The notes under the pieces: generated by a model
Database searches by the model: none
What the model was told of the DNA's origin: nothing
Seen by the model: the letters and a program-made list of their open reading frames with translations, nothing else
Assembly: GCA_003219345.1 (NCBI GenBank)
Contig: QHOP01000091.1
Coordinates: 1 to 37,390 of the forward strand
DNA from: Verrucomicrobiota bacterium
Lineage (GTDB): Bacteria > Verrucomicrobiota > Verrucomicrobiia > Limisphaerales > AV2
Length of the DNA: 37,390 bases
Direction: 5' to 3'
Made by a program: the position numbers and the translations under genes
In this document: positions 14,534 through 37,379 of the stretch, in pieces
How the letters are laid out: every line of letters starts with the position of its first letter
Position numbering within the stretch: the stretch's first letter is position 1

Positions 14534-14815
14534 AGGTTGTCTCCAAATTAAGCGCCTGAGTCCTTTCCGCTCCACCCCGGTTGGCAAAAATTCACCCTTT
14601 TTTGCCGCCGGTCTGGCCGACGTTAAAAAAGCAGCCCATCACCCTCGCCTTTCACTCGGGGGCACTCGCAATACCGAATTGAGCCCTCCAAACGGATTCT
14701 CCACCTTTTCTTGACACCGGGGGGTCCGGCTTCCAGTGGCCATCCACAATCAAGCAATACTCGTACGTGTCTGGCGCGAGGGTCAGATCCTTCATCCACT
14801 GACCCCGCATTCGCC

Positions 14816-16629: not shown

Positions 16630-16761
16630 TGGCCGAATTGTAAATGAGTTTCACGCGCAAAACACGCGAAAATATCTTCATTGGCTGCGTTCGGGAGGGC
16701 GCAGAATAGGAACTTATCGGAGGCGCATCGGCGGCCTCGAAGTGGCGCCGCTTCGGTTGCG

Positions 16762-17646: not shown

Positions 17647-17822
17647 ATCGATCGCTTTCGTTGTCGTCGCCAAAACCAAATTTGTTCTGGTGAGACCAAT
17701 ATCGGCAAAGCAGCGAAAACTCACAATTGGGGGGCTCCCTGATTGTGCTTGAGGGAAATGAACTAACCTGGCTAAGGAAAATCCTTAGCCGACCGTGCAC
17801 TGGACCCGCGAATGAATACCCA

Positions 17823-18344
17823 TCAGACGCGGCCTTCGGTTCGCAATTCGACCAGATATTTGCGCGCGGATTGCAGCCGCTTGATGACCACTTCGGCCAT
17901 GCGCTTCATCAGTTCATAACCGAGATTGTGGTCTTGCTCGCTATACTCGCGCAGCCAGGTGCCGTAGAAAAAGAGGGCTTTGACTGGCGTTGCCGCGCGC
18001 GCGTCGAAGCGCCAATAATACGGCGGGAACAGCCACGACCAGCCAAGCACGTCACCCGGTCCAATGTTTTGGATGAGCATGTGATCGCGTTCGGGGACTT
18101 CCGCCTCCAGTTCCACACGCCCGCTCCGGATGAGATAAAACCGGTTGGCCGGAGTGCCTTCGCGAAAAATCACTTCGCCTTTCTTGAACTCGGCAAACAT
18201 GGCGCATTCGGTCAGAATTGCCAAATGTTCCGGCGTCATGCCCTGGAGAAACGGATGCTCGGCAACCAATCCTGGCAGTGACGACGCGGTGTTTGTCCCG
18301 GCCTGTTCGACTTCGCGCAACGTCGTATCAGTTGTGGTTTTCAT
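17823..18344 (-). CDS. Stand-alone cyclic-nucleotide-binding (cNMP/Crp-type effector) domain protein
   Basis: 173 aa. It has FKKGEVIFREGTPANRFYLIRSGRVELE and GPGDVLGWSWL. No C-terminal HTH is visible. Confidence 0.8.
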   Translation of the reverse strand: MKTTTDTTLREVEQAGTNTASSLPGLVAEHPFLQGMTPEHLAILTECAMFAEFKKGEVIFREGTPANRFYLIRSGRVELEAEVPERDHMLIQNIGPGDVLGWSWLFPPYYWRFDARAATPVKALFFYGTWLREYSEQDHNLGYELMKRMAEVVIKRLQSARKYLVELRTEGRV

Positions 18345-19621: not shown

Positions 19622-21172
19622 ATGAACATGTTGAAAAGAACCTCGATACACGCCGGCGTTACGGCCTTGGCCGCCGTGTTGCTCGCATTGTCCGCCAGGC
19701 AGTTGTCCGCCGCGGCAAATCAAGCCGCCGCGCCATCCACCGGCGCGAAGCTTGTTGATCCCGACGTTACCGGCGTCGAGACGGCAGTGCTCACGCAGGC
19801 CCCGAATGTGCCGCCGCCGATCACACGAAAAAAGCCCGCCAAGGTCATCGTGACCGTGGAAGTCAGAGAAGTCACGAAGCGCCTGGCCGATGGAGTCGAG
19901 TATGTGTTCTGGACATTCGGCGGCGATGTGCCGGGCAGCTTCATTCGTGTCCGCGAGGGCGACCAGGTGGAATTTCACTTGAACAATCATCAGAACAACA
20001 AGATGCCGCACAACATCGACCTGCACGCGGTCACGGGACCGGGCGGGGGCGCCGCGTCGTCGTTCACCGCCCCGGGGCATTCCTCGCAATTCTCGTTCAA
20101 GGCGCTCAATCCGGGACTCTACCTTTATCACTGCGCGACCGCTCCGGTGGGAATGCACGTCGGCAACGGCATGTATGGTTTGATTCTCGTCGAGCCGAAA
20201 GAAGGTCTGCCACCGGCGGACCGGGAGTATTACGTGATGCAAGGCGAGTTTTACACCACCGGCAAATACGGCGACGAAGGGTTGCAGGGGTTCGACATGA
20301 ACAAGGCCACCGATGAACGACCGACCTACGTTGTCTTCAACGGCGCGGTCGGCTCGCTCGTCGGCGACAAGGCGCTTACCGCAAAAATCGGAGAGAAAAT
20401 TCGTCTGTTCGTCGGCAATGGCGGACCGAACCTCGCTTGCTCGTTCCACGTCATCGGCGAAATCCTCGACACGGTTTATCCGGAGGCCGGCACGCAGCCG
20501 ACGCACAACGTGCAAACGACCGTTATTCCTCCTGGCGGATCGGCGATTGTGGAATTCAAAGTCGAAGTGCCCGGCACGTACATCCTGGTGGATCACGCGT
20601 TGTTTCGCGCGTTCAACAAGGGCGCGCTAGGCATGTTGAGAGTGGATGGTCCGCAAGACCTGCTCGTTTATTCCGGCAAAGAAGTGGACGCCGTGTATCT
20701 CGGCAAAGCGGCGGAGGCGGGTACCGACGCCGAAAAGAAAGTCACGGCGCTGAAGGCGGAGGTTGCGCAGGAAATCAAGAGCAACCCGAAAATTGCCGGG
20801 CTGACGAAAGAAATCCAGATCGAGAAAGGCAAGGGCGTCTATATGCAAACCTGCTTCGTTTGCCACCAGCCCGAAGGCGAGGGTTTGCCCGGCCAGATTC
20901 CGCCGCTGGCCAAGTCTGACTTCCTCGCCAGTCTTGCCAAGGAAGATTACATCCGCGGGGTCTTGCTGGGGCGTAGTGGCCAAATCGTCGTCAACGGCAA
21001 GAGTTACAATGGCGTCATGACGCCGTTGAACTACCTGACGGATGAACAAATCGCCAGTGTGCTGACCTACGTTCGCAGCAGTTGGGGCAACTCCGGCGAC
21101 GCGGTGACGGTGGCGGAAGTCGGCAAATTGCGCAACGAAGTAGGCTCGCCGCCGCCCAATCCATATGAATAG
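19622..21172 (+). CDS. nirK: Copper-containing nitrite reductase NirK with C-terminal class I cytochrome c domain
   Basis: 516 aa with a signal peptide. The type 2 Cu region is [17 protein letters not shown]. The type 1 Cu ligands lie in [20 protein letters not shown]. The C-terminal heme domain has CFVCHQPEG and a distal Met region (NGVMTP). Confidence 0.92.
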
Positions 21173-22049
21173 ACGCGCAATTAAATCCGAAGCGCCGCGT
21201 GGCCGCCAACTGACTTGGAAAAGGCGAAAAGTGAACACTCGAAGGCGCCTTTCCATCACTGCGCTGCTCCTGCTGGCCGGCGGAGCGCTTCAGGGTTTAG
21301 GGCAAAAGCTGCCCGGTCCCGCGTTGTCGGGCAAACCCCCTGTCGGCATGGCTCTGATTTCCGACGGCGTATATCAACCGTTATTTCGCGCGGAAAACGA
21401 TCCGAAGGAAATTCCGGTCTCAGCGGTTTATCTCGATGTGTATCCGGTCACCAACGGCGACTTCATCGAATTCGTCCGTGCGAACCCGCGTTGGCGTCGC
21501 TCGCAAGTGAAACGAATCTTCGCCGATGAATCGTATCTGAAAAATTGGTCGGACGATCTCGACCTTGGCGCGAACGCCTCCGCAAACGCGCCGGTGACTT
21601 TTGTGTCGTGGTTCGCCGCGAAAGCCTACGCGCAATGGAAAGGTAAACGTTTGCCGACCGTGGCCGAATGGGAATACGCTGCGTCTGCGAGCCCCACGCG
21701 GCCCGACGGCGAGAACGACGGCGAATTCAAACGTCAGGTGCTTGAATGGTACTCCACCCCGGCCTCGGCGCAGCTTGCGCCGGTCGGTTCCAGTCACGCG
21801 AATTTCTGGGGAATTCATGACTTGCACGGATTGGTGTGGGAGTGGGTCGCCGATTTCAACACGGCGATGGTGACCGGCGACGCGCGCGGCGACACCGGGC
21901 TGGAACGCGATTTGTTCTGCGGAAGCGGGTCGCAGGGCGTGAAGGACACAGACAATTTCCCCGCCTTCATGCGCTACGGCTTCCGCAGCAGCCTCAAGGC
22001 CGATTACTGCGTTCACAATCTTGGCTTTCGTTGCGCCGAAGATTTATGA
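21165..22049 (+). CDS. nirV: Formylglycine-generating-enzyme (SUMF1) family protein, NirV-like
   Basis: 294 aa. It shows FGE-sulfatase-type motifs ([71 protein letters not shown]). It lies immediately downstream of nirK, as nirV does in Rhodobacter. The start is uncertain: ATG 21165 (8-nt overlap with nirK) or GTG 21231, which precedes a signal-like segment. Confidence 0.8.
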
Positions 22050-22582
22050 AACTGCGCCTGGCCATGTTCTTCGTCGCGCTGGCAGCCACGGGTCTCGCCG
22101 GCTGTGCGACGCACTTGCCCGGCCACGCGGCCAAAACTTCGTGTTGCGCTAAAGCGGAACCGCCGACGCCGTTCACCGACAAATCGCTCTATCAACTCGA
22201 CTCGCTGTGGACGACCGATGAGAATAGGCAAATCAAATTAAGCGAACTGAGCGGGCGCCCGCAGATCGTCGCAATGTTCTTCGCTAACTGCCAGATCGCC
22301 TGCCCGATCATCGTGAACGATATGAAACGCATTGAAGCCGCGTTACCCGCGGACGTGCGCGCACGAGTCGGCGTCGCTCTCGTCTCCTTCGACGGCAAAC
22401 GCGACACGCCCGCCGCGCTGGCTGATTACCGACACACGCGCCACCTGCCGGCGGAACGCTGGACGCTCCTGCGCGGAAGGCCGGACGACGTGCTGGAATT
22501 GGCGGCGTTGCTTGGCATCAAATACAAAGAGGACGCTCGTGGCCAGTTCGCGCACTCGAACGTCATCACCATCCTGAAATAG
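22046..22582 (+). CDS. SCO1/SenC-family thioredoxin-fold copper chaperone (lipoprotein)
   Basis: About 178 aa from the ATG at 22046, which overlaps the nirV stop (ATGA). The lipobox is LAATGLAGC, the CxxxC copper motif is FFANCQIACP, and a conserved His lies in QFAHSNVITIL. Confidence 0.85.
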   Translation: MKLRLAMFFVALAATGLAGCATHLPGHAAKTSCCAKAEPPTPFTDKSLYQLDSLWTTDENRQIKLSELSGRPQIVAMFFANCQIACPIIVNDMKRIEAALPADVRARVGVALVSFDGKRDTPAALADYRHTRHLPAERWTLLRGRPDDVLELAALLGIKYKEDARGQFAHSNVITILK

Positions 22583-22637: not shown

Positions 22638-23543
22638 TCAACCCGTCGCCGCTTGTTTGCGAAATTCCCGCGGTGACACTCCGACCAGGTTCTTGAAGAC
22701 AGGGTTGAAATGCGTGAGCGATTGAAAACCCGCTTCAAAGGCGAGTTCGCTGACACGCACGTTGGGGTCGAGCAACGACTTCTTGGCCCGCTCCAAACGC
22801 ACGCGCGAGAGGTATTCGCTGAATTTGATACCGGTCGCCTTCTTGAACAGTTTGCAGAAGTAGAACGTGCTGAGGTTCAGCGCCCGCGCCGTTTGGCCAA
22901 GGGAAAGGTCCGTGGCGCAATTGGCTTCGATGTAAGCCCTGGCACGCGTGATCAGAGGCGGTTCGGTGCTCCGCGCTTGCACGACGGCATGGTTGCTCAC
23001 GATGGCAAGGTGTTTGGCGAAGATGCCCAGGAGCTTCACTGCGGCGGCGTATTGTTTGTCGGTCAACGACGGCGGTTGCGCCGCCCAGCCTTCGTCCTTC
23101 GCACTCGCTCGGGGCACCCCGCGCGACGCGTCCTTTTTTCGTGAAGCCGCTGCCGGAACCTGGTCCCGGACTCGGCCAACCATTTGCAGGATGCCTACCA
23201 GGTGTCGGCCCAGCGCGAGTGGGATGGCCGCGCCGCAGTGACACGGTTCGCCCGCGACAATCGGTCCCCGGATTGGCAAGTGCATCGCGATTCGTTTCTC
23301 CGTGCGCCGGCAGCACACACAGGAGCATTTTTTTCTTCCGGGCAATCTGCAAAGCGGATTGGACTCGCTGGAAGCGCCGCCCGGCAAAGGCCACGAATCC
23401 GTAGGCCGCAGCTTAATCCCCATACCTGTGAGGTCTTTGAAAGCGCGTCTGTAATCGCGGAAGATTTTGGAACCGAGCAGCGCTCCAATCACCGTATTGC
23501 CTATCGACGGCGGGTTGGAAGGTATGGGCGCAACCGTCTTCAC
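22638..23543 (-). CDS. AraC-family transcriptional regulator with PocR-type sensory domain (copy 2)
   Basis: 301 aa and a paralog of 16762-17646. Motifs are NPLCRLPGRKKCSCVCC...PCHCGAAIPLALGRHLVGILQ and the AraC HTH STFYFCKLFKKATGIKFSEYLSRVRLERAK...VSELAFEAGFQSLTHFNPVFKNLVGVSPREFR. It is divergent from the heme-porin operon. Confidence 0.85.
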   Translation of the reverse strand: MKTVAPIPSNPPSIGNTVIGALLGSKIFRDYRRAFKDLTGMGIKLRPTDSWPLPGGASSESNPLCRLPGRKKCSCVCCRRTEKRIAMHLPIRGPIVAGEPCHCGAAIPLALGRHLVGILQMVGRVRDQVPAAASRKKDASRGVPRASAKDEGWAAQPPSLTDKQYAAAVKLLGIFAKHLAIVSNHAVVQARSTEPPLITRARAYIEANCATDLSLGQTARALNLSTFYFCKLFKKATGIKFSEYLSRVRLERAKKSLLDPNVRVSELAFEAGFQSLTHFNPVFKNLVGVSPREFRKQAATG

Positions 23544-23629: not shown

Positions 23630-23769
23630 CCATTCGCTGCAATAGGCGATGGCAAAAAAGGGTGAGTTATTGGCAATAGAGGTGGAGCAGTTCCCTGTCA
23701 TTCATGGTATCCAAACAAAATCCTGATGACGTTCCGATGGTCAAAAACTAGCGCGGTCGCGCGAAGTTA
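23630..23769 (+). repeat. Conserved ~140-bp leader/regulatory element, copy 1 (upstream of the heme-porin operon)
   Basis: It is near-identical to 30594-30732 (about 9 differences by eye). The 66-nt perfect core is AGTTATTGGCAATAGAGGTGGAGCAGTTCCCTGTCATTCATGGTATCCAAACAAAATCCTGATGAC. It contains the inverted repeat TATTG-G-CAATA and a 5' hairpin CCATTCGC...GCGATGG. An ATG follows 8 nt downstream. Confidence 0.9.
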
Positions 23770-23889
23770 AAAAGTTATGAAAAGCCATTCGCAACATCGG
23801 ACCTTCTCCCAAGTGTGTTCGTGTTTTGCCGGGCTGGCTTTTCAGGGTTCCCAAGAAAGCAAGCACTCCAACCAACAGAAGGGACAACA

Positions 23890-25188
23890 ATGAAGAACAC
23901 ACCAAGACTCATGCCGCTTGGCCTGGCTGTGATCACAAGCGCCCTGGCGATGGTGCCGATCAACGGCTGGGCCATCGCCAACTGGGCCAGGAAGTACAAC
24001 GTGGATTGCGCCACGTGTCACTCGCCAGCCGTGCCGCGATTGAATGAGTTCGGACACCAGTTCCGCAAAATGGGCTACCGGATGGATACGGAAATCCAGG
24101 CCGGCAAGCCGGAAGCCTACAAGGAAATTGGGAATTTTCTGTCCGTGCGGTTTCGCACCGGCTACGCGGCCGAGCGTTTCAGCGACCTGCAAACGGCCGG
24201 CAGTGGGTTTAACTCGTTCCGCACCCGCAACGGTTTCAGGGCGCCCGATGTCACTGTGTTTTACTCAGGTGCGTTGACGAAGAATCTGTCGCTGTTTACA
24301 GAAATTGAAGTCGCGGACGTCGATGAAACCGAGCTACAGGTGTTCGGCGAGTGGTTTAGTGGCAACCCGGACCATTACTTCACCGCGCGCATTGGACAAA
24401 TGCACACGTTGTCCCGTATTGGCTGGGCGGGGTTTGATCGTCCGACCGGCATAACCACGCCCGATGCGCTTGCTGCGGCAAAGTTGACCACCAGTCCGGT
24501 GTCGTTCAGCGTTGGCGCAGACCAACGAGGTGTGGATTTGGCTTATTCGTTTACGCCGGAGAGCCGCGCGATTGTCGGCGTTTACAATGGCGTGAACCAG
24601 CAGGGGTCAGGAATTGCGGGCAACGGCGCCGGATTTGGCGACAATGACAACGCCAAAGACGTGCTGGTGGCCTTTGAACAGATGTTAGGTGAATCTGGAT
24701 TCACACTGTTCGGATATTACGGAACGTGGGATCAGGCGGCGGGCACGGTAGTGAACGGAGTTCCTTTGCCAGACAACAACAAGTTCACCGAGTTCAACTT
24801 TCTTCGTGCCGGCGCGACTGCCTCCTGGGTGTTTAACCTGTTTGACCCGAAGACGGTCGGCAGTAGTGAATTGCAAGCGGGCTATATGTTCGCCAAAGAC
24901 TTTTACCCCAAGTCCTATCCGGTCGGCCCTACGTTCAACGGCAAAGACCGGAACGGCCAGGCGTTCTGGATCGGAGTCGAGCAACGTCTGCCGCACAGTT
25001 CAGCGGTGTTCTACCGCTACGATCACGTATCGCGAAGCAACGAGGCCAGTGGGGGTGAACGACAGCGTCATGCCCTTGGAGCGGTTTACACGTATGAACA
25101 ATATCTGAGGCTATCTCTGGAGGGATTCTGCTACGACCAGAACTCCGACTCCTTTGGCGGTCTTCTGCAAGCGATGTTCAATTACTAA
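23890..25188 (+). CDS. Outer-membrane beta-barrel protein with N-terminal monoheme CxxCH motif (fused cytochrome-porin, Cyc2-like architecture)
   Basis: About 432 aa from the ATG at 23890. It has a signal peptide (LGLAVITSALAMVPINGWA) and a single heme motif right after it (WARKYNVDCATCHSPAVPRLNEFGHQFRKMGY). The remaining ~380 aa show alternating, Gly/aromatic-rich beta-strand composition and end in an aromatic residue (LLQAMFNY), as OM barrels do. Confidence 0.7.
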   Translation: MKNTPRLMPLGLAVITSALAMVPINGWAIANWARKYNVDCATCHSPAVPRLNEFGHQFRKMGYRMDTEIQAGKPEAYKEIGNFLSVRFRTGYAAERFSDLQTAGSGFNSFRTRNGFRAPDVTVFYSGALTKNLSLFTEIEVADVDETELQVFGEWFSGNPDHYFTARIGQMHTLSRIGWAGFDRPTGITTPDALAAAKLTTSPVSFSVGADQRGVDLAYSFTPESRAIVGVYNGVNQQGSGIAGNGAGFGDNDNAKDVLVAFEQMLGESGFTLFGYYGTWDQAAGTVVNGVPLPDNNKFTEFNFLRAGATASWVFNLFDPKTVGSSELQAGYMFAKDFYPKSYPVGPTFNGKDRNGQAFWIGVEQRLPHSSAVFYRYDHVSRSNEASGGERQRHALGAVYTYEQYLRLSLEGFCYDQNSDSFGGLLQAMFNY

Positions 25189-25203: not shown

Positions 25204-26331
25204 ATGAAGGCGCACCCCTGTAAAGGACGGGACCTCCTCCTGCGCCGTGCCTTTACAGGGGTGAGGTCTTGGTTGCGAAACGAATTACGAAGGACTCGCG
25301 AATTGAGTCCGACAGCAACCGCATCAACCTTTTGGGCCTCATTAGGAGTTCTGTTTTTTTATTCCACGGGCGTGTTTTCCGCTGTGGCTGAGGATACTGC
25401 ACGGTATCGCTTTGAAGAAGGCGAACCGCTGACGTACAAAACGGAGGTTGGCGTTACCAACGAAAGTCTCGTCGCCACGCGTTTCTATGATCAGTCGGAC
25501 AAGTCCCGCCACAATGAATCACTGGCATTGACCATGAATTACCAACTGATGCCCATCGTGCAGCAGGGAGATGGTCTCTGGAAGATGCGGCTGCTGTTGA
25601 ATCAGGTGGAACAAATTGTCAACCGCGACGGTTATGTCCAGAAGAAGACCCTCGATCGCGCAGCACTTCAAGCGACGAGTTCGAAACCGGGCCTGATACC
25701 TGCCAGAGAAGTCCACGGCCCGGAGGATCTCTTCGACGAACCCCTGCTGGTTTGGATCAAGTCCAATGGCATTCTGCAAAAGTTCGAAGACAGAACCGAA
25801 CTCCAGCAGGTCATACCCGGGATCAACTTGAAAGAATGCATTGAATTGGTGCTGCCGCCGCTGCTGGTTTCAGATTTGCAGGAAGGGACTCAATGGACAC
25901 GAGACGTTCCTGTCGATCTACCGGCGACCCCGATCGAAGGCCATCAACCGGAACCGATGACGCTGAAGCTCGATTATGCTGTTCGAAAGATTGAATCAAT
26001 TGACGGCCGACGTTGCGCCCGGATCGCTTTGAAGGGGCGATTTGTGCGCGATGGTTTGTCGATACCGATTCGACAGGAGGAGATGAAATATTTGATCTGG
26101 ACTACATCTATCACAAGGGTTGCCGATCAGGTGGAAGGGGAGTTTATTTTTGATTTGAGCAAAAGAACTATGCGAACCTCGGAGATAACAAGCGTCTACA
26201 ACTACGCCACCCTGGCGGGCAGAAAGCAGGACAAGTATCGCGGCAGGATTACTTCCGAAAACGAGATTCGAACGCGGCTGGTAAGCAGGCTTGTATCCGA
26301 GCCGATGGCTATTTCTTTCAGCGATGAATGA
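25204..26331 (+). CDS. Hypothetical exported protein, co-oriented directly after the heme-porin
   Basis: 375-aa ORF beginning 16 nt after the porin stop. It has a signal-like hydrophobic segment (FWASLGVLFFYSTGVFSAVA). No motif is recognised and the start is uncertain. Confidence 0.5.
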   Translation: MKAHPCKGRDLLLRRAFTGVRSWLRNELRRTRELSPTATASTFWASLGVLFFYSTGVFSAVAEDTARYRFEEGEPLTYKTEVGVTNESLVATRFYDQSDKSRHNESLALTMNYQLMPIVQQGDGLWKMRLLLNQVEQIVNRDGYVQKKTLDRAALQATSSKPGLIPAREVHGPEDLFDEPLLVWIKSNGILQKFEDRTELQQVIPGINLKECIELVLPPLLVSDLQEGTQWTRDVPVDLPATPIEGHQPEPMTLKLDYAVRKIESIDGRRCARIALKGRFVRDGLSIPIRQEEMKYLIWTTSITRVADQVEGEFIFDLSKRTMRTSEITSVYNYATLAGRKQDKYRGRITSENEIRTRLVSRLVSEPMAISFSDE

Positions 26332-26924: not shown

Positions 26925-27395
26925 ATGCCTGAGAACACATCCAACCAGAAATCTACACGCCGAAGTTTTTTGGACCTTGTCCTGGGCGCGAGCAGCGTGG
27001 CTTGCTTGGGAAGCATTTTGTACCCCGTGATTCGCTACCTCAAACCCCTCCCTCGCGCCGGTGGAGTCGGTCCGACTCGCCTGACACCAGAAGAATTGGC
27101 CAAATTGGAGAAGGAACATTTTGTCATTGTCCCGGTGAGCGGCAAGCGGGTTCTGATACTCCAGAACGCCGCTCAGGAAATCCTGGCTGTTGACGCGAAA
27201 TGCACCCATGAAGGTTGCACCGTCCAGTATTTGCCCGGTGAATCAGTCATCTGGTGTGCCTGTCACAATGCTCGATTTGACTTGGACGGCCGCGTATTGT
27301 CCGGACCACCGCCACGGCCCCTTCCGAAGTACGCCGCGGAGCGTCAGGAAGACGGAGGAATTTTGATTGTCGCGGAGAGGAGGCAGAGTGAGTGA
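26925..27395 (+). CDS. Rieske [2Fe-2S] subunit of a cytochrome bc-type complex
   Basis: 156 aa. It has a Tat-type N-terminus (STRRSFLDLVLGASS) and Rieske boxes CTHEGC and CACHNARF. Confidence 0.9.
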   Translation: MPENTSNQKSTRRSFLDLVLGASSVACLGSILYPVIRYLKPLPRAGGVGPTRLTPEELAKLEKEHFVIVPVSGKRVLILQNAAQEILAVDAKCTHEGCTVQYLPGESVIWCACHNARFDLDGRVLSGPPPRPLPKYAAERQEDGGILIVAERRQSE

Positions 27396-28641
27396 TTCCG
27401 GCCACGGCCAAGGATGGCTGGGCTGGCTTGATCGACGTTACCAAATCACGCCCCTCATCGAATTCCTGCGTCACAAGGAGGTGCCTAAAGGGCCGCACTC
27501 GATGGTTTGGTATTACCTCGGCGGGATGACGATGTTCTTTTTCCTGGTCCAAGTCGTTACCGGAGTGCTCCTCTTGATGTACTACCAACCAGGCGAAGCC
27601 ACAGCCTACGAAAGCATTCGCTACCTGACGACCAAGGTGCCTTTTGGTTGGTTGATGCGTTCGGTCCATTGTTGGAGTGCGCACCTGATGATCATCTCGC
27701 TGGTAACGCACATGTTCAGCACGATGATGCTGAAAGCGTACCGTCCGCCGCGCGAGTTGACGTGGGTCACCGGCTACATCCTGTTTGCCCTTACCCTGGG
27801 CTTTGGCTTTTCCGGGTATCTGCTGCCGTGGAACAAGCTGGCCTTTTTCGCGACTTCGGTCGGGACCGACCTCGTCAAGTCGGTGCCACTGATCGGGAAC
27901 TGGCTGTTGCAAGTATTGCGGGGCGGCCCGGATGTGACCGCCAATACCCTGTATCGCTTCTTCGCGCTTCACGTTGTCATTTTGCCGCTGGCGTTTGTGA
28001 GCCTCATTGGCGTTCATCTCTTGTTTGTTCAACGCCAGGGCATGGCCCCGCCCCTTGGCGCCAAAGTCGCGCCTAGGGGAATGAGGTTTTTCCCCAGCTT
28101 TGCGCTGCGAGATCTGCTCTTGTGGTTGGTTTGCTTCATGGTTTTGTTGGTCTTGGCGGTGTTCGTCCCGTATGGTCCGGGAATCCCGGGTATGGACTGG
28201 GAATTGGGCCAGAAAGCTGACCCGTTGGCGCCGGCGTTTCCCGGTATTAAACCGGAGTGGTATTTCTTGTGGGAGTATCAGTTGCTGAAGGAATTTCCCC
28301 CGCACCTGTTTGGCTTGGAAGGGCCGCAATTGTGTTTGCTGGTCGTAAGTCTTCTCCTGGGCATCTGGGCCATCATTCCGTGGCTGGACCGACAAGCGCA
28401 GCGTGAGCAGCCATCGCCCGGCTTCAGTGACTTCGGCTGGGGCGCAATCCTGTTTCTGACGTTCCTGACGCTGAAGGCTTGGGACATTGGCGCTATGGAG
28501 CCTGCCACTTCCGGGTCTTCATTGAAAGTCATATCCCGAACCTGCGCCTGGTGGACCATTGGTGCCGGCGCGGTGATCATTGGAATTCGTTGGCTGCTCC
28601 AGTCATCGCGGCAGTCCTCGCCGCCGTCGGCATCGCGATGA
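27388..28641 (+). CDS. Cytochrome b (fused b6-like N-terminal part plus subunit-IV-like C-terminal part)
   Basis: About 417 aa from the GTG at 27388, with AGGAGG 4 nt upstream and an 8-nt overlap with the Rieske gene; TTG 27367 is the alternative start. The heme ligand pairs are H-x13-H (HCWSAHLMIISLVTH) and H-x14-H (HVVILPLAFVSLIGVH). The Qo-site motif is KPEWYFLWEY. The YYLGG segment has no Cys that would bind heme ci. Confidence 0.9.
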   Translation: MSDSGHGQGWLGWLDRRYQITPLIEFLRHKEVPKGPHSMVWYYLGGMTMFFFLVQVVTGVLLLMYYQPGEATAYESIRYLTTKVPFGWLMRSVHCWSAHLMIISLVTHMFSTMMLKAYRPPRELTWVTGYILFALTLGFGFSGYLLPWNKLAFFATSVGTDLVKSVPLIGNWLLQVLRGGPDVTANTLYRFFALHVVILPLAFVSLIGVHLLFVQRQGMAPPLGAKVAPRGMRFFPSFALRDLLLWLVCFMVLLVLAVFVPYGPGIPGMDWELGQKADPLAPAFPGIKPEWYFLWEYQLLKEFPPHLFGLEGPQLCLLVVSLLLGIWAIIPWLDRQAQREQPSPGFSDFGWGAILFLTFLTLKAWDIGAMEPATSGSSLKVISRTCAWWTIGAGAVIIGIRWLLQSSRQSSPPSASR

Positions 28642-28687: not shown

Positions 28688-30232
28688 ATGAGAATCATTT
28701 CGTCTTTCCTATGCCCGGTCCTGTGCGTCTCCCTGGCAGCCGTTGCGGCGGATGAAAAACCGGGCGTCATTCCCGAAAAGCTGGCAGGATTGTTTGCCGC
28801 ACAAGGGAAGGATGGCAAACCGACAATCACTCCGGAACAGCGAACCTACTTTGACGGGTTGAATGATCGCCTCAAAGCTCTCCTCATCAAGACGGTTGAG
28901 GCGGAGGTCATCACTCGCCCCGAGCATTTGGGGACCATCCTGGCGCTGGGCTTGCGTCCGCAAAAGATGGAGATTCTCTTACAAGACAATTGCATCCTGT
29001 GTCACACGGACCCCGAAGTGCAGAAGCCCGAAACGCTTCTTACTCTTTCTCCGGCGCCGGGCAAAACCCCCTCGCATCTGAATCTGCAGGACTTTGTTGA
29101 TGATGTTCATTTTCTCCGCGGCCTGTCCTGTGCCGGTTGCCACGGTGGGGATCCTGGCAGCGACAAGCTCGAACACTCTTTTGTCAAGGAATGGCCAAGC
29201 GCCGGCCGTGACAAGGATCGTGGTTGGATTCTTTCTTTCTGCGCACGCTGCCATTCCGACTCGACGTTCATGAATCGATTCAATCCCGCGTTGCCTACCG
29301 ACCAGTTGGCGAAGTACAAAGACAGCCCGCACGGAAAGTTCCTGCTGGAAGCCCGAGACGCCCGCGCTCCCGATTGCTTGAGTTGTCACGGTGTCCACGG
29401 CATCCGCAGCGCCAAAAACCCGCTCTCGAAGGTTTACCGCAAGCGGGTCCCGGAAACCTGCGGCGCCTGCCACTCAGATGCCAAGCGGATGGCCGGCCTG
29501 ACTCTGTCCGACGGTTCGCCCATGCCCACCAACCAACTCGCGGAATACCGCGCCAGCGTGCACGGTCGCGCGTTGCTGGAGCGCGGCGATCTGGGCGCGC
29601 CGGCGTGCAACAACTGTCACGGCAACCATGCCGCTATGCCGACTGGCCTGTCGAGCGTGAGCCAGAGCTGCAGTCTCTGCCACGCGGGCAACGCCAGCTT
29701 GTTCGATGGCAGCAAACACAAGCAGGCTTTCGAGGAGCACAAATGGCCCCAGTGCGCGAAGTGCCACGGGAACCATGTCATCGCCAAGACGCACGATTCG
29801 ATGTTAGCCGCCGGGCAGGAATCCTTGTGCAACAAATGTCATCAGCAATACGCCAAGGACAATCCCGAGTGCAACGCAACCGCGACTTACTTTTACACCT
29901 CGCTAGCGCAGATGGACCAGGTCTGGAACGAGTTTGGCGTCACCGCTGATCGATTGGCCATGAAAGGCCTGGACGTGGACCCGATCCACGACAAGTTGAA
30001 CGAATTGGCGGACAGCTTGAAACAGGCTCGTTCTCACATTCACTCATTCAGCAAAAACGACTTCCAGCGAGCCGCCGATCCGGGAGAGAAAGCCGTTCTG
30101 GGCATTTCCAGGTTGGTTGAAGAAGCGAAGGCAGAATATCGGTTCCGGCAACTCGGTTTGGTCACGACCATCGCATTGATGGGATTAGTGATGTTGGCTC
30201 TCTATGTTAAGCTTCGCCGTCTCGAACGTTAA
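28688..30232 (+). CDS. Membrane-anchored nine-heme c-type cytochrome (bc-complex-associated)
   Basis: 514 aa with a signal peptide. There are nine CxxCH motifs: CILCH, CAGCH, CARCH, CLSCH, CGACH, CNNCH, CSLCH, CAKCH and CNKCH. A C-terminal TM helix (LGLVTTIALMGLVMLALYV) is present, and GGGAGG precedes the ATG. Confidence 0.9.
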   Translation: MRIISSFLCPVLCVSLAAVAADEKPGVIPEKLAGLFAAQGKDGKPTITPEQRTYFDGLNDRLKALLIKTVEAEVITRPEHLGTILALGLRPQKMEILLQDNCILCHTDPEVQKPETLLTLSPAPGKTPSHLNLQDFVDDVHFLRGLSCAGCHGGDPGSDKLEHSFVKEWPSAGRDKDRGWILSFCARCHSDSTFMNRFNPALPTDQLAKYKDSPHGKFLLEARDARAPDCLSCHGVHGIRSAKNPLSKVYRKRVPETCGACHSDAKRMAGLTLSDGSPMPTNQLAEYRASVHGRALLERGDLGAPACNNCHGNHAAMPTGLSSVSQSCSLCHAGNASLFDGSKHKQAFEEHKWPQCAKCHGNHVIAKTHDSMLAAGQESLCNKCHQQYAKDNPECNATATYFYTSLAQMDQVWNEFGVTADRLAMKGLDVDPIHDKLNELADSLKQARSHIHSFSKNDFQRAADPGEKAVLGISRLVEEAKAEYRFRQLGLVTTIALMGLVMLALYVKLRRLER

Positions 30233-30525: not shown

Positions 30526-30540
30526 CATGTACTGGGGAGT

Positions 30541-30580
30541 CCCTTGGATAAGGCGACAGTCACCGACTCTTATCCAAGGG
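30541..30580. repeat. Perfect 12-bp inverted repeat (stem-loop)
   Basis: CCCTTGGATAAG (30541-30552), a 16-nt loop, then CTTATCCAAGGG (30569-30580). It extends by 4 more base pairs (GGAG/CTCC) after one mismatch. It sits between the two repeat elements of the 505-bp intergenic region. Confidence 0.85.
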
Positions 30581-30593
30581 CCTCCTCAGTAAG

Positions 30594-30732
30594 CCATTCG
30601 CTGCACAGGCGATGGCAACCAACGGTTAGTTATTGGCAATAGAGGTGGAGCAGTTCCCTGTCATTCATGGTATCCAAACAAAATCCTGATGACCTTCCGA
30701 TGGTCAAAGACTAGCGCGGTCACGCGAAGTTA
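30594..30732 (+). repeat. Conserved ~140-bp leader/regulatory element, copy 2 (upstream of the cytochrome c / porin / diheme operon)
   Basis: See copy 1 (23630-23769). It ends 5 nt before the ATG at 30737. Similarity continues through the ATG (ATGAAGTACC versus ATGAAAAGCC). Confidence 0.9.
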
Positions 30733-30736
30733 GCAG

Positions 30737-31114
30737 ATGAAGTACCGACAAATTAAAGCTACTAAAAATATGAACCGACCCAGCTCCTTGAAATCACGTC
30801 TGTGGACCGGCGCCAGCGTCGCGGTGCTTGGAGCGCTCCTTTACGCTCTGTCCAGCGTTTTCGTTCCCGGCGCAGGTGCCAAAGCGGAAAAGAAAACAGA
30901 AAAAAGGGTCGAGAAAAAGCCGGAGAAGAAAAAGCTCAGCGGAGCGGAGCTGTATTCGATGCATTGTAACAGGTGCCACCCCGAACGTTATCCAACGGAG
31001 AGGACCGCGGCGCAATGGAAAACCATCCTGCTCCACATGCGCGTGCGGGCGAACCTTCCTGCCGAACAGTCGCAGATGATCCTCAAATACCTGCAGGACA
31101 ACAGCGGACGATAA
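30737..31114 (+). CDS. Membrane-anchored monoheme c-type cytochrome
   Basis: 125 aa (alternative Met at codon 12). It has an N-terminal TM/signal anchor (LWTGASVAVLGALLYALSSVFV), a Lys/Glu-rich linker (KAEKKTEKRVEKKPEKKK) and a single heme motif CNRCHPERYP followed by WKTILLHMRVRANL. Confidence 0.8.
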   Translation: MKYRQIKATKNMNRPSSLKSRLWTGASVAVLGALLYALSSVFVPGAGAKAEKKTEKRVEKKPEKKKLSGAELYSMHCNRCHPERYPTERTAAQWKTILLHMRVRANLPAEQSQMILKYLQDNSGR

Positions 31115-31150
31115 GCGGCTGAACCCGGATAAAATGGCAAAAACGTTAGC

Positions 31151-32530
31151 ATGAAAACACGTTCCTTCGCGTTGGGATGCGCGTGCATATGCTGTGCGCT
31201 AGTGGTTCCGCTACCGGTCGGGACAGCGGCCGCTATCGACGACCAGCAGTTCAACGAATTGAAAGACCTAGTCACCAAACTAGGCCAGAAAATCGAAACA
31301 CAGGACCAACGGATCGAGCAACTGGAAAAAACACATGCGCAAGATGCGCAGGTCCACGCGCAAGATCAGAAGACTCATGAACAGGACCAGCAGAAAATCC
31401 AGGAACTGCAGCAAAAGCTGGGAGAAACACAACAAGCAGTCTCGAACGTCCAAACGGCGGCGATAGCGGTCCCAGTGGAACCGCTGCCTCGGGTGCCGCT
31501 GGACGAGGCCACCGTCAACCATAACTTCTCCATTCTCGGTGATGCTGAGTTTCAATACGCCAAGACCTCGGGCCAGCATGGGACATTTTTGTTCGCGGAT
31601 TTTGCGCCCATTTTCCTATATCGGGGCGGAGAGAAGGTCCTGTTCGAGGCCGGTTTCGATTTTGGTTTGCAGAATAACGCTCCGAACAGTCCCGGGGCCA
31701 CTACGACCATCAATCTAAGCTTCGCCCAATTGGATTACCTGATGAACGATTATGTGACATTGGTGGCGGGAGACATGGTGCTGCCTCTCGGCACTTATAG
31801 CGAGCGGACCGCGGGCTGGTTGAACAAAATTCCTGATGATCCATTGCCTCGCGACCTGCTGCCAGGTGCGGGCGTGGGGGCGCAGTTACGAGGGGCTGTT
31901 CCGCTGGGCGAGAGCGGAAAGTTAATCAACTATTCCGTGTGGGGTGTGAATGGGGCAAGCTCGGCGGATGGCACCGGCAATGCCGATCAACTGGATTTGG
32001 GTGGGAACGTGGGCCTGCGGTCGGACAATGCGGTGGCCAATTTGCACGGCAAACCGAGCGGCGGCGCGCGCGTGGGGTGGTTTATGCCTTTCAAGCCCCA
32101 CTACGATCTGGAACTGGGCCTTTCGGGTCAATCGGGGGAATGGGATAACGCGGGACAGCATCTGTGGTCCGCGGGCGTGCTGGACGCCAGCCTGCACCTG
32201 GGATCGACCGTTGAGGTCAAGGGCGAATATATCCGCAGTTGCTATGGAAGCGACGATCACGGGAACGTCCGACCCGAGGGATGGTGGTTGCAGGCCAGCT
32301 ATAAGCTCGTTGGATTAAATCTGGATTGGCCGGTTATCAATAACCTGGAACTGGTGAACCGGTATGACAGTATCCACGATGGCCTGGGCACTCGGACCCG
32401 GCGGTATACTCTGGGCTATATCTACTATTTTTCGAATACGCTGCTGTTCGAAGGAGGTTATGAATTTCTCCACAGCAATGATCCAACTCAGAAAGACCAG
32501 TTGATTTTCCAACTTTCCTATGGGTTTTGA
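31151..32530 (+). CDS. Outer-membrane porin with N-terminal coiled coil (phosphate-selective porin O/P-like organisation)
   Basis: 459 aa with a signal peptide. It has a Gln/His-rich heptad coiled coil (LEKTHAQDAQVHAQDQKTHEQDQQKIQELQQKL) followed by a beta-strand-rich region. It ends in the barrel terminal signature LIFQLSYGF. Confidence 0.7.
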   Translation: MKTRSFALGCACICCALVVPLPVGTAAAIDDQQFNELKDLVTKLGQKIETQDQRIEQLEKTHAQDAQVHAQDQKTHEQDQQKIQELQQKLGETQQAVSNVQTAAIAVPVEPLPRVPLDEATVNHNFSILGDAEFQYAKTSGQHGTFLFADFAPIFLYRGGEKVLFEAGFDFGLQNNAPNSPGATTTINLSFAQLDYLMNDYVTLVAGDMVLPLGTYSERTAGWLNKIPDDPLPRDLLPGAGVGAQLRGAVPLGESGKLINYSVWGVNGASSADGTGNADQLDLGGNVGLRSDNAVANLHGKPSGGARVGWFMPFKPHYDLELGLSGQSGEWDNAGQHLWSAGVLDASLHLGSTVEVKGEYIRSCYGSDDHGNVRPEGWWLQASYKLVGLNLDWPVINNLELVNRYDSIHDGLGTRTRRYTLGYIYYFSNTLLFEGGYEFLHSNDPTQKDQLIFQLSYGF

Positions 32531-33389
32531 AGCCTTCATGTTGAAAATCGAACCTGATTATTACCAACATACTATGCCCACATGCATATTCCATAACAGC
32601 AAGCGGTCGCGTTTAATCCGAGCCTGTCTCCTGGCCACGCTCGCGTGCCTATCCAGCACTTGGGCTTTGGCGCAGAGCGCCTCCGCAACGACGGAATCAA
32701 CGAATCAAGCGCCAACTTACCTACGGGACGTATTGCCTATCATCATGGGAAAGTGCTCCAGATGCCATAACGAGCAAGCGCGGTTTGTTTACAATTGGCT
32801 GGATTACCGGACGGCCTATGCAGATCGCTGGGAGATCAGAAGACGGTTGTGGGACAGTTGGAAGGGGACTTATTTCAAGGAATCAATGCCGATCGCGAAT
32901 AGTCCTGAATCATTGGCGATCACCGATGAGGAACGGTTAACGATCCGGAATTGGGTGGCTGCCGGTGCGCTTCGTGGTGTTACTCCGCCGCCAGGCGCGC
33001 CAAAATCCAAAGCTGAGAAAATTGAGCTTGGCAGGCGTCTGTTTACTTCCATCTGCGCAGCTTGTCATCAGCCGACGGGCCAGGGACTCCCGAACGTATT
33101 TCCACCTCTGGCCAGCTCGGATTTTCTAAATGCGGACAAGAACAGAGCGATAAAAATTGTAATCAATGGCCGGCAGGGAGAGCTGATTGTCAATGGAAGA
33201 AAATTCAACAATAGCATGCCTCAGTTTCCACTTAGCGATGACGATATCGCCAACGCCCTGACCTTCGTTTACAACTCATTCGGAAACGCGGGACTTGAGG
33301 TCAAACCGGAAGAAGTCAAATTCCTTCGCACCCAGCCGCCCGATCCAGAAGGACCAAGAGGCATCCCTCAGAAGAGCCCATACGAGTGA
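32520..33389 (+). CDS. Diheme c-type cytochrome (N-terminal PVC-type heme domain plus C-terminal class I domain)
   Basis: 289-aa ORF; the start is uncertain (Mets at 32520, 32538 and 32574, the last preceding a signal peptide LLATLACLSSTWALA). The heme motifs are GKCSRCHNEQ and ICAACHQPTGQGLP. The C-terminal domain is clearly similar to the NirK C-terminal heme domain. Confidence 0.8.
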   Translation: MGFEAFMLKIEPDYYQHTMPTCIFHNSKRSRLIRACLLATLACLSSTWALAQSASATTESTNQAPTYLRDVLPIIMGKCSRCHNEQARFVYNWLDYRTAYADRWEIRRRLWDSWKGTYFKESMPIANSPESLAITDEERLTIRNWVAAGALRGVTPPPGAPKSKAEKIELGRRLFTSICAACHQPTGQGLPNVFPPLASSDFLNADKNRAIKIVINGRQGELIVNGRKFNNSMPQFPLSDDDIANALTFVYNSFGNAGLEVKPEEVKFLRTQPPDPEGPRGIPQKSPYE

Positions 33390-35624: not shown

Positions 35625-36191
35625 TTAGTTTCCGATAAACTCGTGTTCCTGCTCGCGCACGACGAGTACCGGACATGTTGCGCGGCGGATAACATTTTCA
35701 GCCACGCTCCCCATGAAGACATGTTTCAAGCCCGTGCGACCGTGCGTGGAGATAATGATGAGGTCGCTCTCCAGCTTTTTGGCGCAATCAACGATCTCCA
35801 CTACTTCCTGACCGATCCGGACGAGCGTCTGGGCGACGGCCTGTTGTTGAATTTCTGTCGCCGCGAGCTGACCGAGTTGCTTTTCCGCGCTTTTCCGCAA
35901 ATCGGCTTCGATGAGCGGAAAGTCTATAGCGCCGAACTCCGGGCCGGCAGAGTAGTTGACATGCACGACGTGCAACAGCGTGATTGTTGCGCCGAACTGT
36001 TTGGCGAACGGAACGGCGTATCGCAGCGCCTTTTTCGAGCAGTCCGAAAAGTCAATCGGCACCAGAATGTCTTTCAAGCTAAACGGAGTCGGTTTGTTGT
36101 AGGTGTTCTGGCTGGTGCCAAGGATGGACTCGTCCTTGCGATTCAGCTCGACGATTACCTGGCCGCGTTTAGTTGCAGGTTTGATTTTCAT
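35625..36191 (-). CDS. Universal stress protein (UspA family), copy 1
   Basis: About 188 aa from the Met at 36191. Motifs are ILVPIDFSDCSKKALRYAVPFAKQFGATITLLHVV, IIISTHGRTGLKHVFMGSVAENVIRRATCPVLVV and a C-terminal REQEHEF. The ATG overlaps the upstream USP stop (ATGA). Confidence 0.85.
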   Translation of the reverse strand: MKIKPATKRGQVIVELNRKDESILGTSQNTYNKPTPFSLKDILVPIDFSDCSKKALRYAVPFAKQFGATITLLHVVHVNYSAGPEFGAIDFPLIEADLRKSAEKQLGQLAATEIQQQAVAQTLVRIGQEVVEIVDCAKKLESDLIIISTHGRTGLKHVFMGSVAENVIRRATCPVLVVREQEHEFIGN

Positions 36192-36838
36192 AAGTTCCTT
36201 TTTAGTTGACCGTGGTTGGTTGGACAAACCGCTGTTTCCGTTTTTCCGTTGAATTGTCTTAGGGACCCCGGTGAGTTGAGGGATTGCCCAATGAATTCGG
36301 GTTCGTTCTCCGGCACCATCAAAACCGGGCAAGGCGCGTGGCGGACGACGCGTTCTACCGTGCTGCCCAATGGGGCATGGTCCAGCGCGGTATAGCCGCG
36401 AGTGGCGAGGATGATCAGATCCACCTCGAGTTCTTTCGCGACCTTTGCGATTTCGTCGAATGCGACGCCGCTGCGAACCAATGTATCGCACCGGCATTTC
36501 GAATCGAGCTGCCGCCGTGCGATGGCGTCGAGGTGCGCCTGGCTCCGCTTCAAGAGGAGTGGATCAGGTTCCGTGCGAACAACGGGGCCGTACCCAAAGT
36601 CCGCGGTGTAAGGGACCGACTCGACAACGTGCAACAACACGAGCCGGGCGCCGAATCGCCGAGCGAAAGACTTCGCGTAGCGCAATGCCTTTTGCGATGG
36701 CGCGGAAAAATCAGTTGGCAGAAGGATCTTGTTGATCTTTAGGGCGGGAGGGAGCGCGGCCTTCACAGCACCGCGCCCTAACGCCAAGCGCGTGTGCGTT
36801 CCGGCCCTCGAAGGGTTGCTGTTAATTGTCGCAGTCAT
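36188..36838 (-). CDS. Universal stress protein (UspA family), copy 2
   Basis: About 216 aa from the Met at 36838 (alternative Met at 36883). Motifs are ILLPTDFSAPSQKALRYAKSFARRFGARLVLLHVV and IILATRGYTALDHAPLGSTVERVVRHAPCPVLMV. It has a ~30-aa C-terminal extension beyond the EPEFIG end shared with its paralogs. Confidence 0.8.
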   Translation of the reverse strand: MTATINSNPSRAGTHTRLALGRGAVKAALPPALKINKILLPTDFSAPSQKALRYAKSFARRFGARLVLLHVVESVPYTADFGYGPVVRTEPDPLLLKRSQAHLDAIARRQLDSKCRCDTLVRSGVAFDEIAKVAKELEVDLIILATRGYTALDHAPLGSTVERVVRHAPCPVLMVPENEPEFIGQSLNSPGSLRQFNGKTETAVCPTNHGQLKRNL

Positions 36839-36869
36839 ATTCGCCACCTGACTTGGGAGCGTTTCTGTG

Positions 36870-37379
36870 TCAGACAAATTCATGTTCCTGTTCGCGCACG
36901 ACGAGCACCGGACAGGGCGCATGGCGGACGACGCGTTCGGCTGTGCTGCCCAGCACCGCGTGCTTCAGGCCCGTGTAGCCATGAGTGGAAATAACAATCA
37001 GGTCCACCTTCAACCCGCGCGCTGCGTCGCAGATCTCCTGGAATGGTTTTCCGAACCGAACCAGCGTTTTCTCGATCAGACGCGGTTTGATCGCCTCGCG
37101 TTTGCAAAGCAAATCGAGCTTTGTCCGGAAGACCCTGGCAACCCTGTCGTTCTCCGTGAGCAAAGGAAAATTGGCGAAGTCCGGCGTAGCGATCGGTTCG
37201 ACGACGTGAAGCAAAGTAATTTTCGCGCCAAACTGCTCGGCGAACGGCAGCGCATAACGGAGCGCTTTCCCGGCGGGCTCGGAAAAGTCGATAGGCACAA
37301 GGATGGATTTCAGTTTGAGGCGCGCGGGCGTTCGTTCGCTCAGCGCAGCCGTGCCGACAGTCTTTCGCAACATGCCCAC
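36870..37379 (-). CDS. Universal stress protein (UspA family), copy 3
   Basis: 169 aa. Motifs are ILVPIDFSEPAGKALRYALPFAEQFGAKITLLHVV, IVISTHGYTGLKHAVLGSTAERVVRHAPCPVLVV and REQEHEFV. The start is close to the window edge. Confidence 0.8.
   Translation of the reverse strand: MGMLRKTVGTAALSERTPARLKLKSILVPIDFSEPAGKALRYALPFAEQFGAKITLLHVVEPIATPDFANFPLLTENDRVARVFRTKLDLLCKREAIKPRLIEKTLVRFGKPFQEICDAARGLKVDLIVISTHGYTGLKHAVLGSTAERVVRHAPCPVLVVREQEHEFV

Follow-up and report, generated by a model that had tools for sequence, protein, structure and literature searches.

Periplasmic c-type cytochromes act downstream of a small OprO/P-like barrel in the accepted Cyc2 pathway (PMC8406198). In Geobacter, the extHIJKLMNOPQS cluster, which is conserved, encodes ExtI, a porin of about 45 kDa annotated as phosphate-selective, and next to it a small protein; further genes specify c-type cytochromes, a Rieske protein and a cytochrome b (PMC5877670). 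Clusters of porin and multiheme cytochrome genes have been reported in Verrucomicrobia (He 2017, PMC5615132; 2026 peat preprint). Among porins that carry a periplasmic coiled-coil stalk, OmpM1 is both a tether and a nutrient channel (PMC10628300). Here, we describe three genes in a 37,390-nucleotide stretch of a Verrucomicrobiota bacterium (GCA_003219345.1, contig QHOP01000091.1, positions 1 to 37,390; the window). They encode a small monoheme c-type cytochrome, a stalked outer-membrane porin and a diheme c-type cytochrome, and we refer to them as the trio. It is a porin clustered with cytochromes, in a mono/diheme form that we did not find described in full-text searches, which also returned no mention of an unfused Cyc2.

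As judged from gene linkage among relatives, the trio is a dedicated, co-inherited, operon-like module typical of the subdivision-3 Verrucomicrobiota (the Limisphaerales/Pedosphaera group). At least 1657 homologues of the porin and at least 2223 of the small cytochrome are present in the protein collection. The locus sample, limited to one genome per species, consists of 80 loci with porins 55–99% identical, mostly labelled Limisphaerales, Pedosphaera or "subdivision 3" Verrucomicrobiota; among them is L006, the near-identical (99%) twin of the window. In all 80, the gene immediately before the porin encodes a homologue of the small cytochrome. A second c-type cytochrome also adjoins the porin. 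It is the diheme protein in 59 loci and a monoheme protein of about 160 aa in 20 (type B), and the last one is truncated inside the diheme gene. The diheme gene is usually immediately downstream on the same strand (56 of 59), but it is convergent in L052 and L072 and upstream in L080. Three homologues on long contigs occupy three unrelated neighbourhoods, each with a protein of about 120 aa upstream and a cytochrome c of about 265 aa downstream, and some single metagenome-assembled genomes (MAGs) have two diverged copies of the module (for example, L007 and L052; L008 and L076). The co-occurrence in other genomes that the first-pass annotation of this DNA had proposed as a check thus holds in no fewer than three gene arrangements and against many unrelated flanks. 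The strongest sign that the products of the three genes work together is this persistence of the linkage when genes are rearranged or the module is moved. Some of the contigs bear labels from elsewhere, namely Saccharimonadales, Bifidobacteriaceae, Limnocylindrales, Binatia or Candidatus Acidoferrum (L014, L015, L023, L034, L042, L046, L049, L053, L074, L009); these are probably mis-binned or mislabelled MAGs.

The small cytochrome was first annotated as an anchored heme protein of 125 aa. The single CNRCH, the hydrophobic N-terminal helix and the Lys/Glu linker all stand, but the probable start shortens the protein to 114 aa, which is also the start used in the public gene calls (P0122). In 114-aa numbering, an AlphaFold2 model built on a 40-sequence alignment has a hydrophobic helix at residues 7–29, a disordered Lys/Glu-rich segment at 30–57 and then a three-helix heme domain of about 55 aa. 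The heme region reads LSGAELYSMH-CNRCH-PERY-PTE in 80 of 80 homologues. Over the same loci, the heme domain is almost invariant and the linker, about 25–45 residues by eye, is variable. The order of helix, disordered linker and heme domain recalls cytochrome c_y. The helix may be either an uncleaved anchor or a signal peptide that is cleaved off: N-termini of the homologues have a long hydrophobic stretch followed in many by an AXA site and in at least six loci by a lipobox-like Cys. We infer from the model that the protein is a periplasmic heme domain leashed to a membrane anchor or lipid. Family searches give it weak matches to TorC (the C-terminal heme domain, 1.5e-6), SorB and DHC. A firm subfamily was sought by structure search and set aside, the matches being weak (DHC, OmcF).

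The barrel was correctly called as a separate gene of 459 aa with a coiled coil and a terminal LSYGF; the open reading frame (ORF) bears this out, and AlphaFold2 predicts a long helix and then strands. The model (mean pLDDT 61) begins with a signal peptide, continues as an uninterrupted helix over residues 31–100 and ends in a barrel of about 16–18 strands. The top Foldseek matches of this medium-confidence model are OprP (2o4v, 3e-11) and OprO (4rjw, 6e-11) at TM scores of 0.51–0.57; general 16-strand trimeric porins and OmpM1 (8bys, 7.5e-9) come next. The window porin has no Pfam match, and 10 of 42 close homologues match PF07396 (Porin_O_P) weakly, at best at 2.8e-5. An exhaustive search with only the barrel produced 710 cluster representatives. 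In distant relatives at 31–43% identity, the barrel also starts near residue 90–130, and 4 of the 10 distant relatives scanned pass the Porin_O_P gathering score (cut-off 20.9 bits; P0300 37.6, P0327 27.0, P0361 23.5, P0378 42.8). Since the structural matches are to OprP and OprO and distant relatives pass the Pfam threshold, we place the porin, on the model and these scores, in the OprO/OprP (Porin_O_P) superfamily as a divergent branch with a stalk.

It does not look like an ordinary member of that superfamily. Across 81 porin sequences of 55–99% overall identity, 95 positions are conserved at 97% or more, and these include long segments between strands such as LPLGTYSERTAGWLNKIPDDP. By this sequence measure, conservation, loops included, is unusually high for a porin. 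The lumen and outward phases were set for each predicted strand by hydrophobicity, which is a crude assignment on a model of pLDDT 61; in it, the class-conserved charges in the lumen phase are 15 acidic and 4 basic, plus 1 His, and no conserved Arg/Lys ladder corresponding to the OprP-type arginine ladder and lysine cluster is found. The mostly acidic conserved lumen residues suggest that the channel might prefer cations or neutral solutes over phosphate-type anions. The first-pass annotation had raised the prospect of a plain phosphate porin with unconserved neighbours. Its superfamily membership is upheld, but the neighbours are conserved in 80 of 80 loci, and the lumen charges are unlike those of OprP.

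The stalk is conserved only at the a and d positions of the heptad core, and 7-residue indels among the homologues keep the heptad register. The core has polar layers, with H or N at position a and D, E or N at position d; in the window, they are H62, H69 and H76 at a and D65, D72 and D79 at d. A metal-binding "wire" through the stalk was considered and dropped. The His (a)/Asp (d) pattern looked invariant only among homologues at least 64% identical, and over the 80 loci there are 3, 2, 1 or 0 H..D layers in 5, 27, 34 and 14, respectively, with N, Q or E otherwise at the same core positions. Because homologues may have three H..D layers or none, what is conserved is the polar core layer and not a metal site. 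Neither an S-layer homology (SLH) domain nor a recognisable peptidoglycan-binding domain was found in the window porin or in 42 homologues. By analogy with its structural matches, the porin is probably trimeric, and we propose from the model that each subunit has a stalk of about 10 nm reaching into the periplasm.

The presence of a diheme cytochrome downstream of the porin was likewise well called, with CSRCH and CAACH both in the third ORF. The start was not. An 11-nt overlap with the porin stop exists only in the longest ORF, and the most likely start from sequence is the ATG at 32574, because a protein begun there has a normal signal peptide and is as long as its closest homologues. Those in L006, L008 and L009 have 271–272 aa and begin about 45 nt past the porin stop. 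A signal peptide is predicted on the 271-aa form, and with this start the gaps within the trio are 36 nt between small cytochrome and porin and 43 nt between porin and diheme cytochrome. Exactly two CXXCH motifs occur in 59 of 60 aligned diheme sequences. The C-terminal domain matches Pfam Cytochrom_C (4.4e-10). It is, by sequence, a clear homologue of the c552 and NirK-tethered domains, with phmmer values of 5e-30 to the tethered cytochrome of the Ralstonia pickettii copper nitrite reductase (RpNiR residues 350–460) and 3e-13 to Thermus c552. The N-terminal heme domain is conserved and has no family match above threshold. As for the type-B cytochrome, an identity with either window cytochrome was considered and rejected, the similarity being marginal.

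The module is repeatedly, but not always, placed beside respiratory complexes. In 17 of the 20 type-B loci, the next gene encodes a GltD-like FAD/FeS oxidoreductase of the NAD(P) type, and genes for a Rieske protein and cytochrome b then come in 12. In L070 (9366–15784), which was inspected closely, the GltD-like oxidoreductase, the Rieske protein and cytochrome b are joined by a cytochrome c with six CXXCH motifs and then by a c552-like cytochrome. This subunit set, in L070 and 16 others, recalls the Rieske/cytochrome b complexes of anammox bacteria with their proposed NAD(P) oxidoreductase subunits. An AraC/PocR regulator is encoded upstream in 13 loci. Genes for ctaA, ctaB and COX1 are found within 5 kb after the trio in 9–11 loci. 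The module is inserted between ribBA and ribH in 14 loci of both types (L013, L016, L038, L039, L047, L068, L070, L073 and others), and modules in this slot often continue with ctaA, ctaB and COX1. The window and L006 have Rieske, cytochrome b and nine-CXXCH cytochrome genes directly before the trio. The remaining loci have unrelated flanks.

A second porin-like gene of the window, module 1, bears on the origin of the trio. It had been described as a fusion of heme and barrel in one polypeptide, and this is confirmed by a single CATCH ahead of its barrel. The published Cyc2 motif is AXPXFAR[Q/K][T/Y] before CXXCH, with PXL four residues after (Keffer et al. 2021; PMC8406198). In the module-1 protein, the corresponding stretch is AIANWARKY-NVD-CATCH-SPAV-PRL, and the consensus of its family is AIPAWARKY...CxxCH....PRL. 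Because it fits the motif, module 1 is assigned by sequence to the Cyc2 family of fused cytochrome-porins. Its partner gene, of about 375 aa and without a Pfam match, is kept beside the Cyc2-like genes in two other loci, L086 and L087. In L087, the Cyc2-like gene and the partner are followed by genes for a small cytochrome c, a c7-like multiheme protein and a 4Fe-4S protein.

The first-pass annotation took the trio to be a split version of this fused module, and that idea fails. In the trio, the heme protein and the barrel come from two ORFs, and each has a signal sequence of its own. BLASTP between the two barrels gives an E value of 0.19, and when the porin profile is compared with the Cyc2-like profile by hhalign, the alignment is confined to 77 C-terminal columns (67% probability). 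The small-cytochrome profile reaches 14% against the Cyc2-like profile. In all 80 loci, the Cyc2 motif AXPXFAR[Q/K][T/Y] is absent from the small cytochrome, and there is no clean PXL; none of these loci has a Cyc2-like gene within 8 kb of the trio. Conversely, the called genes around the Cyc2-like genes of L086 and L087 include no porin-sized neighbour and no adjoining trio. Both barrels are of the small, 16-strand OprO/P-like porin class to which Cyc2 is also assigned, but the profile comparison that had been suggested as a check gives no specific homology between them. The idea that the trio arose when a Cyc2 gene was split is rejected on the BLASTP result, the profile comparisons and the missing motif, and on these sequence comparisons the trio is not descended from Cyc2.

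The duplicated leader reported before the two modules is real: a direct repeat of 126–140 nt, 94% identical, stands just upstream of each. Copy 2 contains a palindrome, TGACC-N7-GGTCA, at 30690–30706. The leader occurs twice in the window and in its twin L006, and in none of the 79 other loci. The claim that a shared leader makes the two modules partners or alternatives is therefore reduced to local co-regulation, and a general feature of the module was discarded as an explanation of the leader on the same count. A structured RNA or riboswitch was also considered and rejected, with no Rfam match at gathering or permissive thresholds and a fold z of -1.05. No sigma-70-like promoter or terminator in the leader region scored above shuffles. 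The leader is best read as a lineage-specific promoter or operator through which both modules would be regulated jointly in this organism. One 38-nt box from it recurs on the minus strand at 14569–14606 with 84% identity (GGCAAAAAAGGGTGA.TT.TTG.CAA....GGTGGAGC). It stands upstream of the ORF at 13838–14587, which looks like a paralogue of the ORF at 13190–13762, and could serve as an operator or promoter element common to these genes. The inverted repeat before copy 2 has no T-run and was not called as a terminator; it possibly marks the end of the upstream transcription unit, and copy 1 has no equivalent. An AraC/PocR regulator gene (22638–23543) is adjacent to the leader.

The coordinates are collected in Table 1. 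Elsewhere in the window, the interval 19622–22582 encodes a copper nitrite reductase (NirK; TIGR02376, 5e-106) that has a cytochrome c domain fused at its C-terminus. Next in the interval are an FGE-sulfatase/EgtB-like protein and an ORF that reads like SCO1/SenC. Genes for AraC/PocR, Crp-like and PAS-kinase/LuxR regulators lie at 14816–18344, and the same set is directly upstream of the trio in L051. Three tandem ORFs on the minus strand at 35625–37379 read like universal stress proteins with nearly identical C-termini (...PCPVLVVREQEHEF).

Table 1. Features of the trio and of related elements in the window (nucleotide positions of the 37,390-nt stretch).
Feature	Position	Strand	Remarks
Small monoheme c-type cytochrome	30737..31114	+	125 aa in the longest ORF; probably 114 aa from ATG 30770; CNRCH 30965-30979
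Stalked outer-membrane porin	31151..32530	+	459 aa; C-terminus LSYGF
Porin, predicted signal peptide			residues ~1-28
Porin, predicted stalk	31241-31450		residues 31-100
Porin, predicted barrel	31529-32527		residues ~127-459
Diheme c-type cytochrome	32520..33389	+	289 aa in the longest ORF; probably 271 aa from ATG 32574
Diheme cytochrome, CSRCH	32754-32768	+	N-terminal domain
Diheme cytochrome, CAACH	33054-33068	+	C-terminal class-I domain
Leader copy 1	23630..23769	+	upstream of module 1
Leader copy 2	30594..30732	+	~140 nt; upstream of trio
Module 1, Cyc2-family fused monoheme cytochrome-porin (by motif fit)	23887..25188	+	
Partner gene of module 1	25204-26331	+	~375 aa; conserved in L086 and L087
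Rieske protein	26925-27395	+	context upstream of trio
Cytochrome b	27367-28641	+	context upstream of trio
Membrane-anchored multiheme cytochrome c	28688-30232	+	nine CXXCH; immediately upstream of trio
Inverted repeat	30530..30591	+	23-nt arms, 16-nt loop, 91% complementary; between multiheme cytochrome gene and leader copy 2

Taking linkage, domain content and neighbours together, we tentatively favour a reading in which the trio is a porin-supplied periplasmic electron-transfer module, although we would put it somewhat below an even chance. Through the porin, a small solute that diffuses freely and is redox-active would enter the periplasm and exchange electrons with the two cytochromes. The electrons would then pass to membrane complexes encoded nearby, such as the Rieske/cytochrome b complex or an aa3-type oxidase, and here also to NirK. 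The diheme protein would be the soluble carrier, its c552/NirK-tethered-type domain handing electrons to terminal oxidoreductases. Such a module would be in the spirit of Cyc2 plus Cyc1 but built independently from another porin branch and other cytochromes. In Acidithiobacillus, the rus operon has the order cyc2-cyc1-cox, and the petI "uphill" operon encodes a c4 cytochrome, a dehydrogenase and bc1. Presumably, the L013-type order of monoheme cytochrome, barrel, diheme cytochrome and cox genes echoes rus, and the type-B order, continued by an NAD(P) flavoprotein and Rieske/cytochrome b, echoes petI. Because of these parallels, the acidic lumen and the peat and soil habitats, Fe2+ would be the best single guess for the solute. 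Several points weigh against the electron-transfer module. In about two thirds of the loci, no respiratory complex is encoded in the surrounding 8 kb, and c-type cytochromes of these kinds are ordinary respiratory carriers that need no porin. The substrate is a guess, and the count of acidic lumen residues is made on a model of pLDDT 61 with a crude phase assignment. Oxidation of Fe(II) in the periplasm risks precipitation of Fe(III) at neutral pH. Finally, the only metatranscriptomes of a study in which this sequence occurs gave no matching contigs.

The chief competitor, which we think rather unlikely but take seriously, is that the genes merely reside together: the cytochromes would be ordinary carriers between bc-type complexes, oxidases and NirK, the porin would be the lineage's major general stalked porin or its outer-membrane tether, OmpM-like without SLH, and ancestry and shared high expression would have kept them adjacent. 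The standard types of the cytochrome domains (c552/NirK-tethered, and a leash like that of cytochrome c_y) agree with this, as does the resemblance of a stalk plus 16-strand porin to OmpM1 (PMC10628300). The fixed ribBA-ribH slot suggests old vertical inheritance, and the stalk is conserved only in its core a/d positions. Yet pure ancestry does not predict a linkage that outlasts rearrangement and many changes of flank, and whole-module paralogues in single MAGs also sit poorly with it. The barrel and its loops are far more conserved than is usual for general porins, and no SLH or other peptidoglycan-binding domain was recognised. Another explanation keeps the porin in the electron path as a two-piece analogue of Cyc2, in which the leashed heme domain docks into or onto the periplasmic mouth of the barrel and oxidises Fe2+ as it enters, and the diheme cytochrome removes the electron. 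The minimal size of the heme domain, a barrel in the OprO/P-like class on which Cyc2 is modelled, the presumed gene-order parallels to rus and petI, and a leader in common with a real Cyc2 homologue in this genome all lend it something. We nevertheless hold it to be decidedly unlikely. Neither barrel nor heme part shows homology to Cyc2, the porin N-terminus is already taken up by the stalk, and a leash of 25–45 residues from a probable inner-membrane anchor suits a shuttle better than a fixed plug. OprP-type lumens are, moreover, narrow and loop-filled, at about 3.5 Å (quoted in PMC8406198).

A wider version of the same thought, unlikely as well, would make the trio a redox gate of the outer membrane with just two components, a stalked OprP-superfamily porin lined with acidic residues and a leashed mini-cytochrome of about 55 aa. 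Functionally, this would be a split equivalent of the Cyc2 iron oxidase that evolved on its own. It would come in two operon versions, "downhill" with the diheme cytochrome and ctaA/ctaB/COX1 and "uphill" with Rieske/cytochrome b and the NAD(P)-type flavoprotein, and the abundant Verrucomicrobia of soil and peat would then be unrecognised oxidisers of Fe(II) or humic shuttles. The solute might instead be an anion. If the porin imported nitrite or another oxyanion, the cytochromes could feed a periplasmic reductase such as NirK. This fits with Porin_O_P superfamily membership, with the nearness of the diheme C-terminal domain to NirK-tethered cytochromes (5e-30) and with the NirK gene 10 kb upstream in the window, and ExtI, proposed for selenite in Geobacter, is a precedent (PMC5877670). 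It is improbable all the same. The lumen charges are mostly acidic with no conserved Arg/Lys ladder, and the window NirK already has its own cytochrome domain. Around the trio, none of the 80 loci yielded an identified NirK; 64 "NirK" matches closely track 65 diheme matches, presumably through the shared cytochrome c domain. Very improbable, in our view, is a role in metal acquisition, with an acidic channel bringing in Cu or Fe and the cytochromes reducing the metal for cuproenzymes or heme-copper oxidases. The acidic conserved lumen residues would suit it, as would the ctaA/ctaB/COX1 neighbours in 9–11 loci and, in the window, NirK and the ORF reading like SCO1. But no metallochaperone is consistently linked, the His/Asp layers of the stalk core are not universal, and two dedicated cytochromes in 80 of 80 loci seem more than a metal reductase needs.

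Subdivision-3 Verrucomicrobia are among the commonest bacteria of soils, peat and humic lakes, and their respiratory biology is almost uncharacterised; the module itself has thousands of metagenomic homologues. Should the porin supply the redox substrate, this would be a new and simple coupling of an outer-membrane channel to an electron-transport chain in diderms. It would also be a possible marker set for iron or shuttle oxidation that tools based on Cyc2, Mto and Mtr would probably miss. If it is only a housekeeping porin, it would be a second example of a stalk plus porin outside Terrabacteria, and one free of SLH.

Compared with known systems, the trio has elements of several. Like the Mtr, Pio, Mto and Pcc systems and the Verrucomicrobial porin-multiheme clusters, it has a porin gene clustered with c-type cytochrome genes. 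MtrCAB, PioAB/MtoAB and Pcc have barrels of 20–28 strands threaded by cytochromes with 8–10 hemes, whereas the trio has about 16 predicted strands and 1 + 2 hemes. Because of this heme count and barrel size, a heme wire of the Mtr/Pcc type through the membrane is excluded, as far as the modelled barrel goes. Identity with the published Verrucomicrobial clusters was also considered and rejected, those having larger barrels and multiheme cytochromes. The porin finds its best structural matches in OprP and OprO (PF07396) but differs from them in its stalk of about 70 residues, in its 15 acidic to 4 basic lumen charges and in being always flanked by cytochromes. With OmpM and SlpA of Negativicutes and Deinococcus-Thermus, it has in common a periplasmic coiled-coil stalk followed by a porin barrel (PMC10628300). 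It departs from them in lacking SLH, in belonging to another phylum, in its polar N/H/D/E stalk layers and in its linkage to cytochromes. The small cytochrome resembles cytochrome c_y in its possible anchor, flexible linker and class-I heme domain, but its heme domain, at about 55 aa, is much smaller and is nearest, weakly, to the DHC and TorC C-terminal types.

The nearest described layout is the ext cluster of Geobacter, which resembles both the type-B operon and the window in gene content. Unlike the trio, ext has multiheme cytochromes with 4–12 hemes, one of them a selenoprotein, and a rhodanese-like lipoprotein. Cyc2 with a Cyc1-type cytochrome is alike in its single heme, in a small barrel of about 16 strands for which OprO/OprP are the models, and in an adjacent periplasmic c-type cytochrome, sometimes with oxidase or bc-type genes next, and a genuine Cyc2 homologue lies 7 kb upstream of the trio behind the same leader. 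The difference is in construction. Cyc2 is fused, with its heme domain at the N-terminus; in the trio, the genes are separate, the N-terminus of the porin is a coiled-coil stalk, and the cytochrome, unlike the Cyc2 heme domain, has its own signal or anchor and a long leash.

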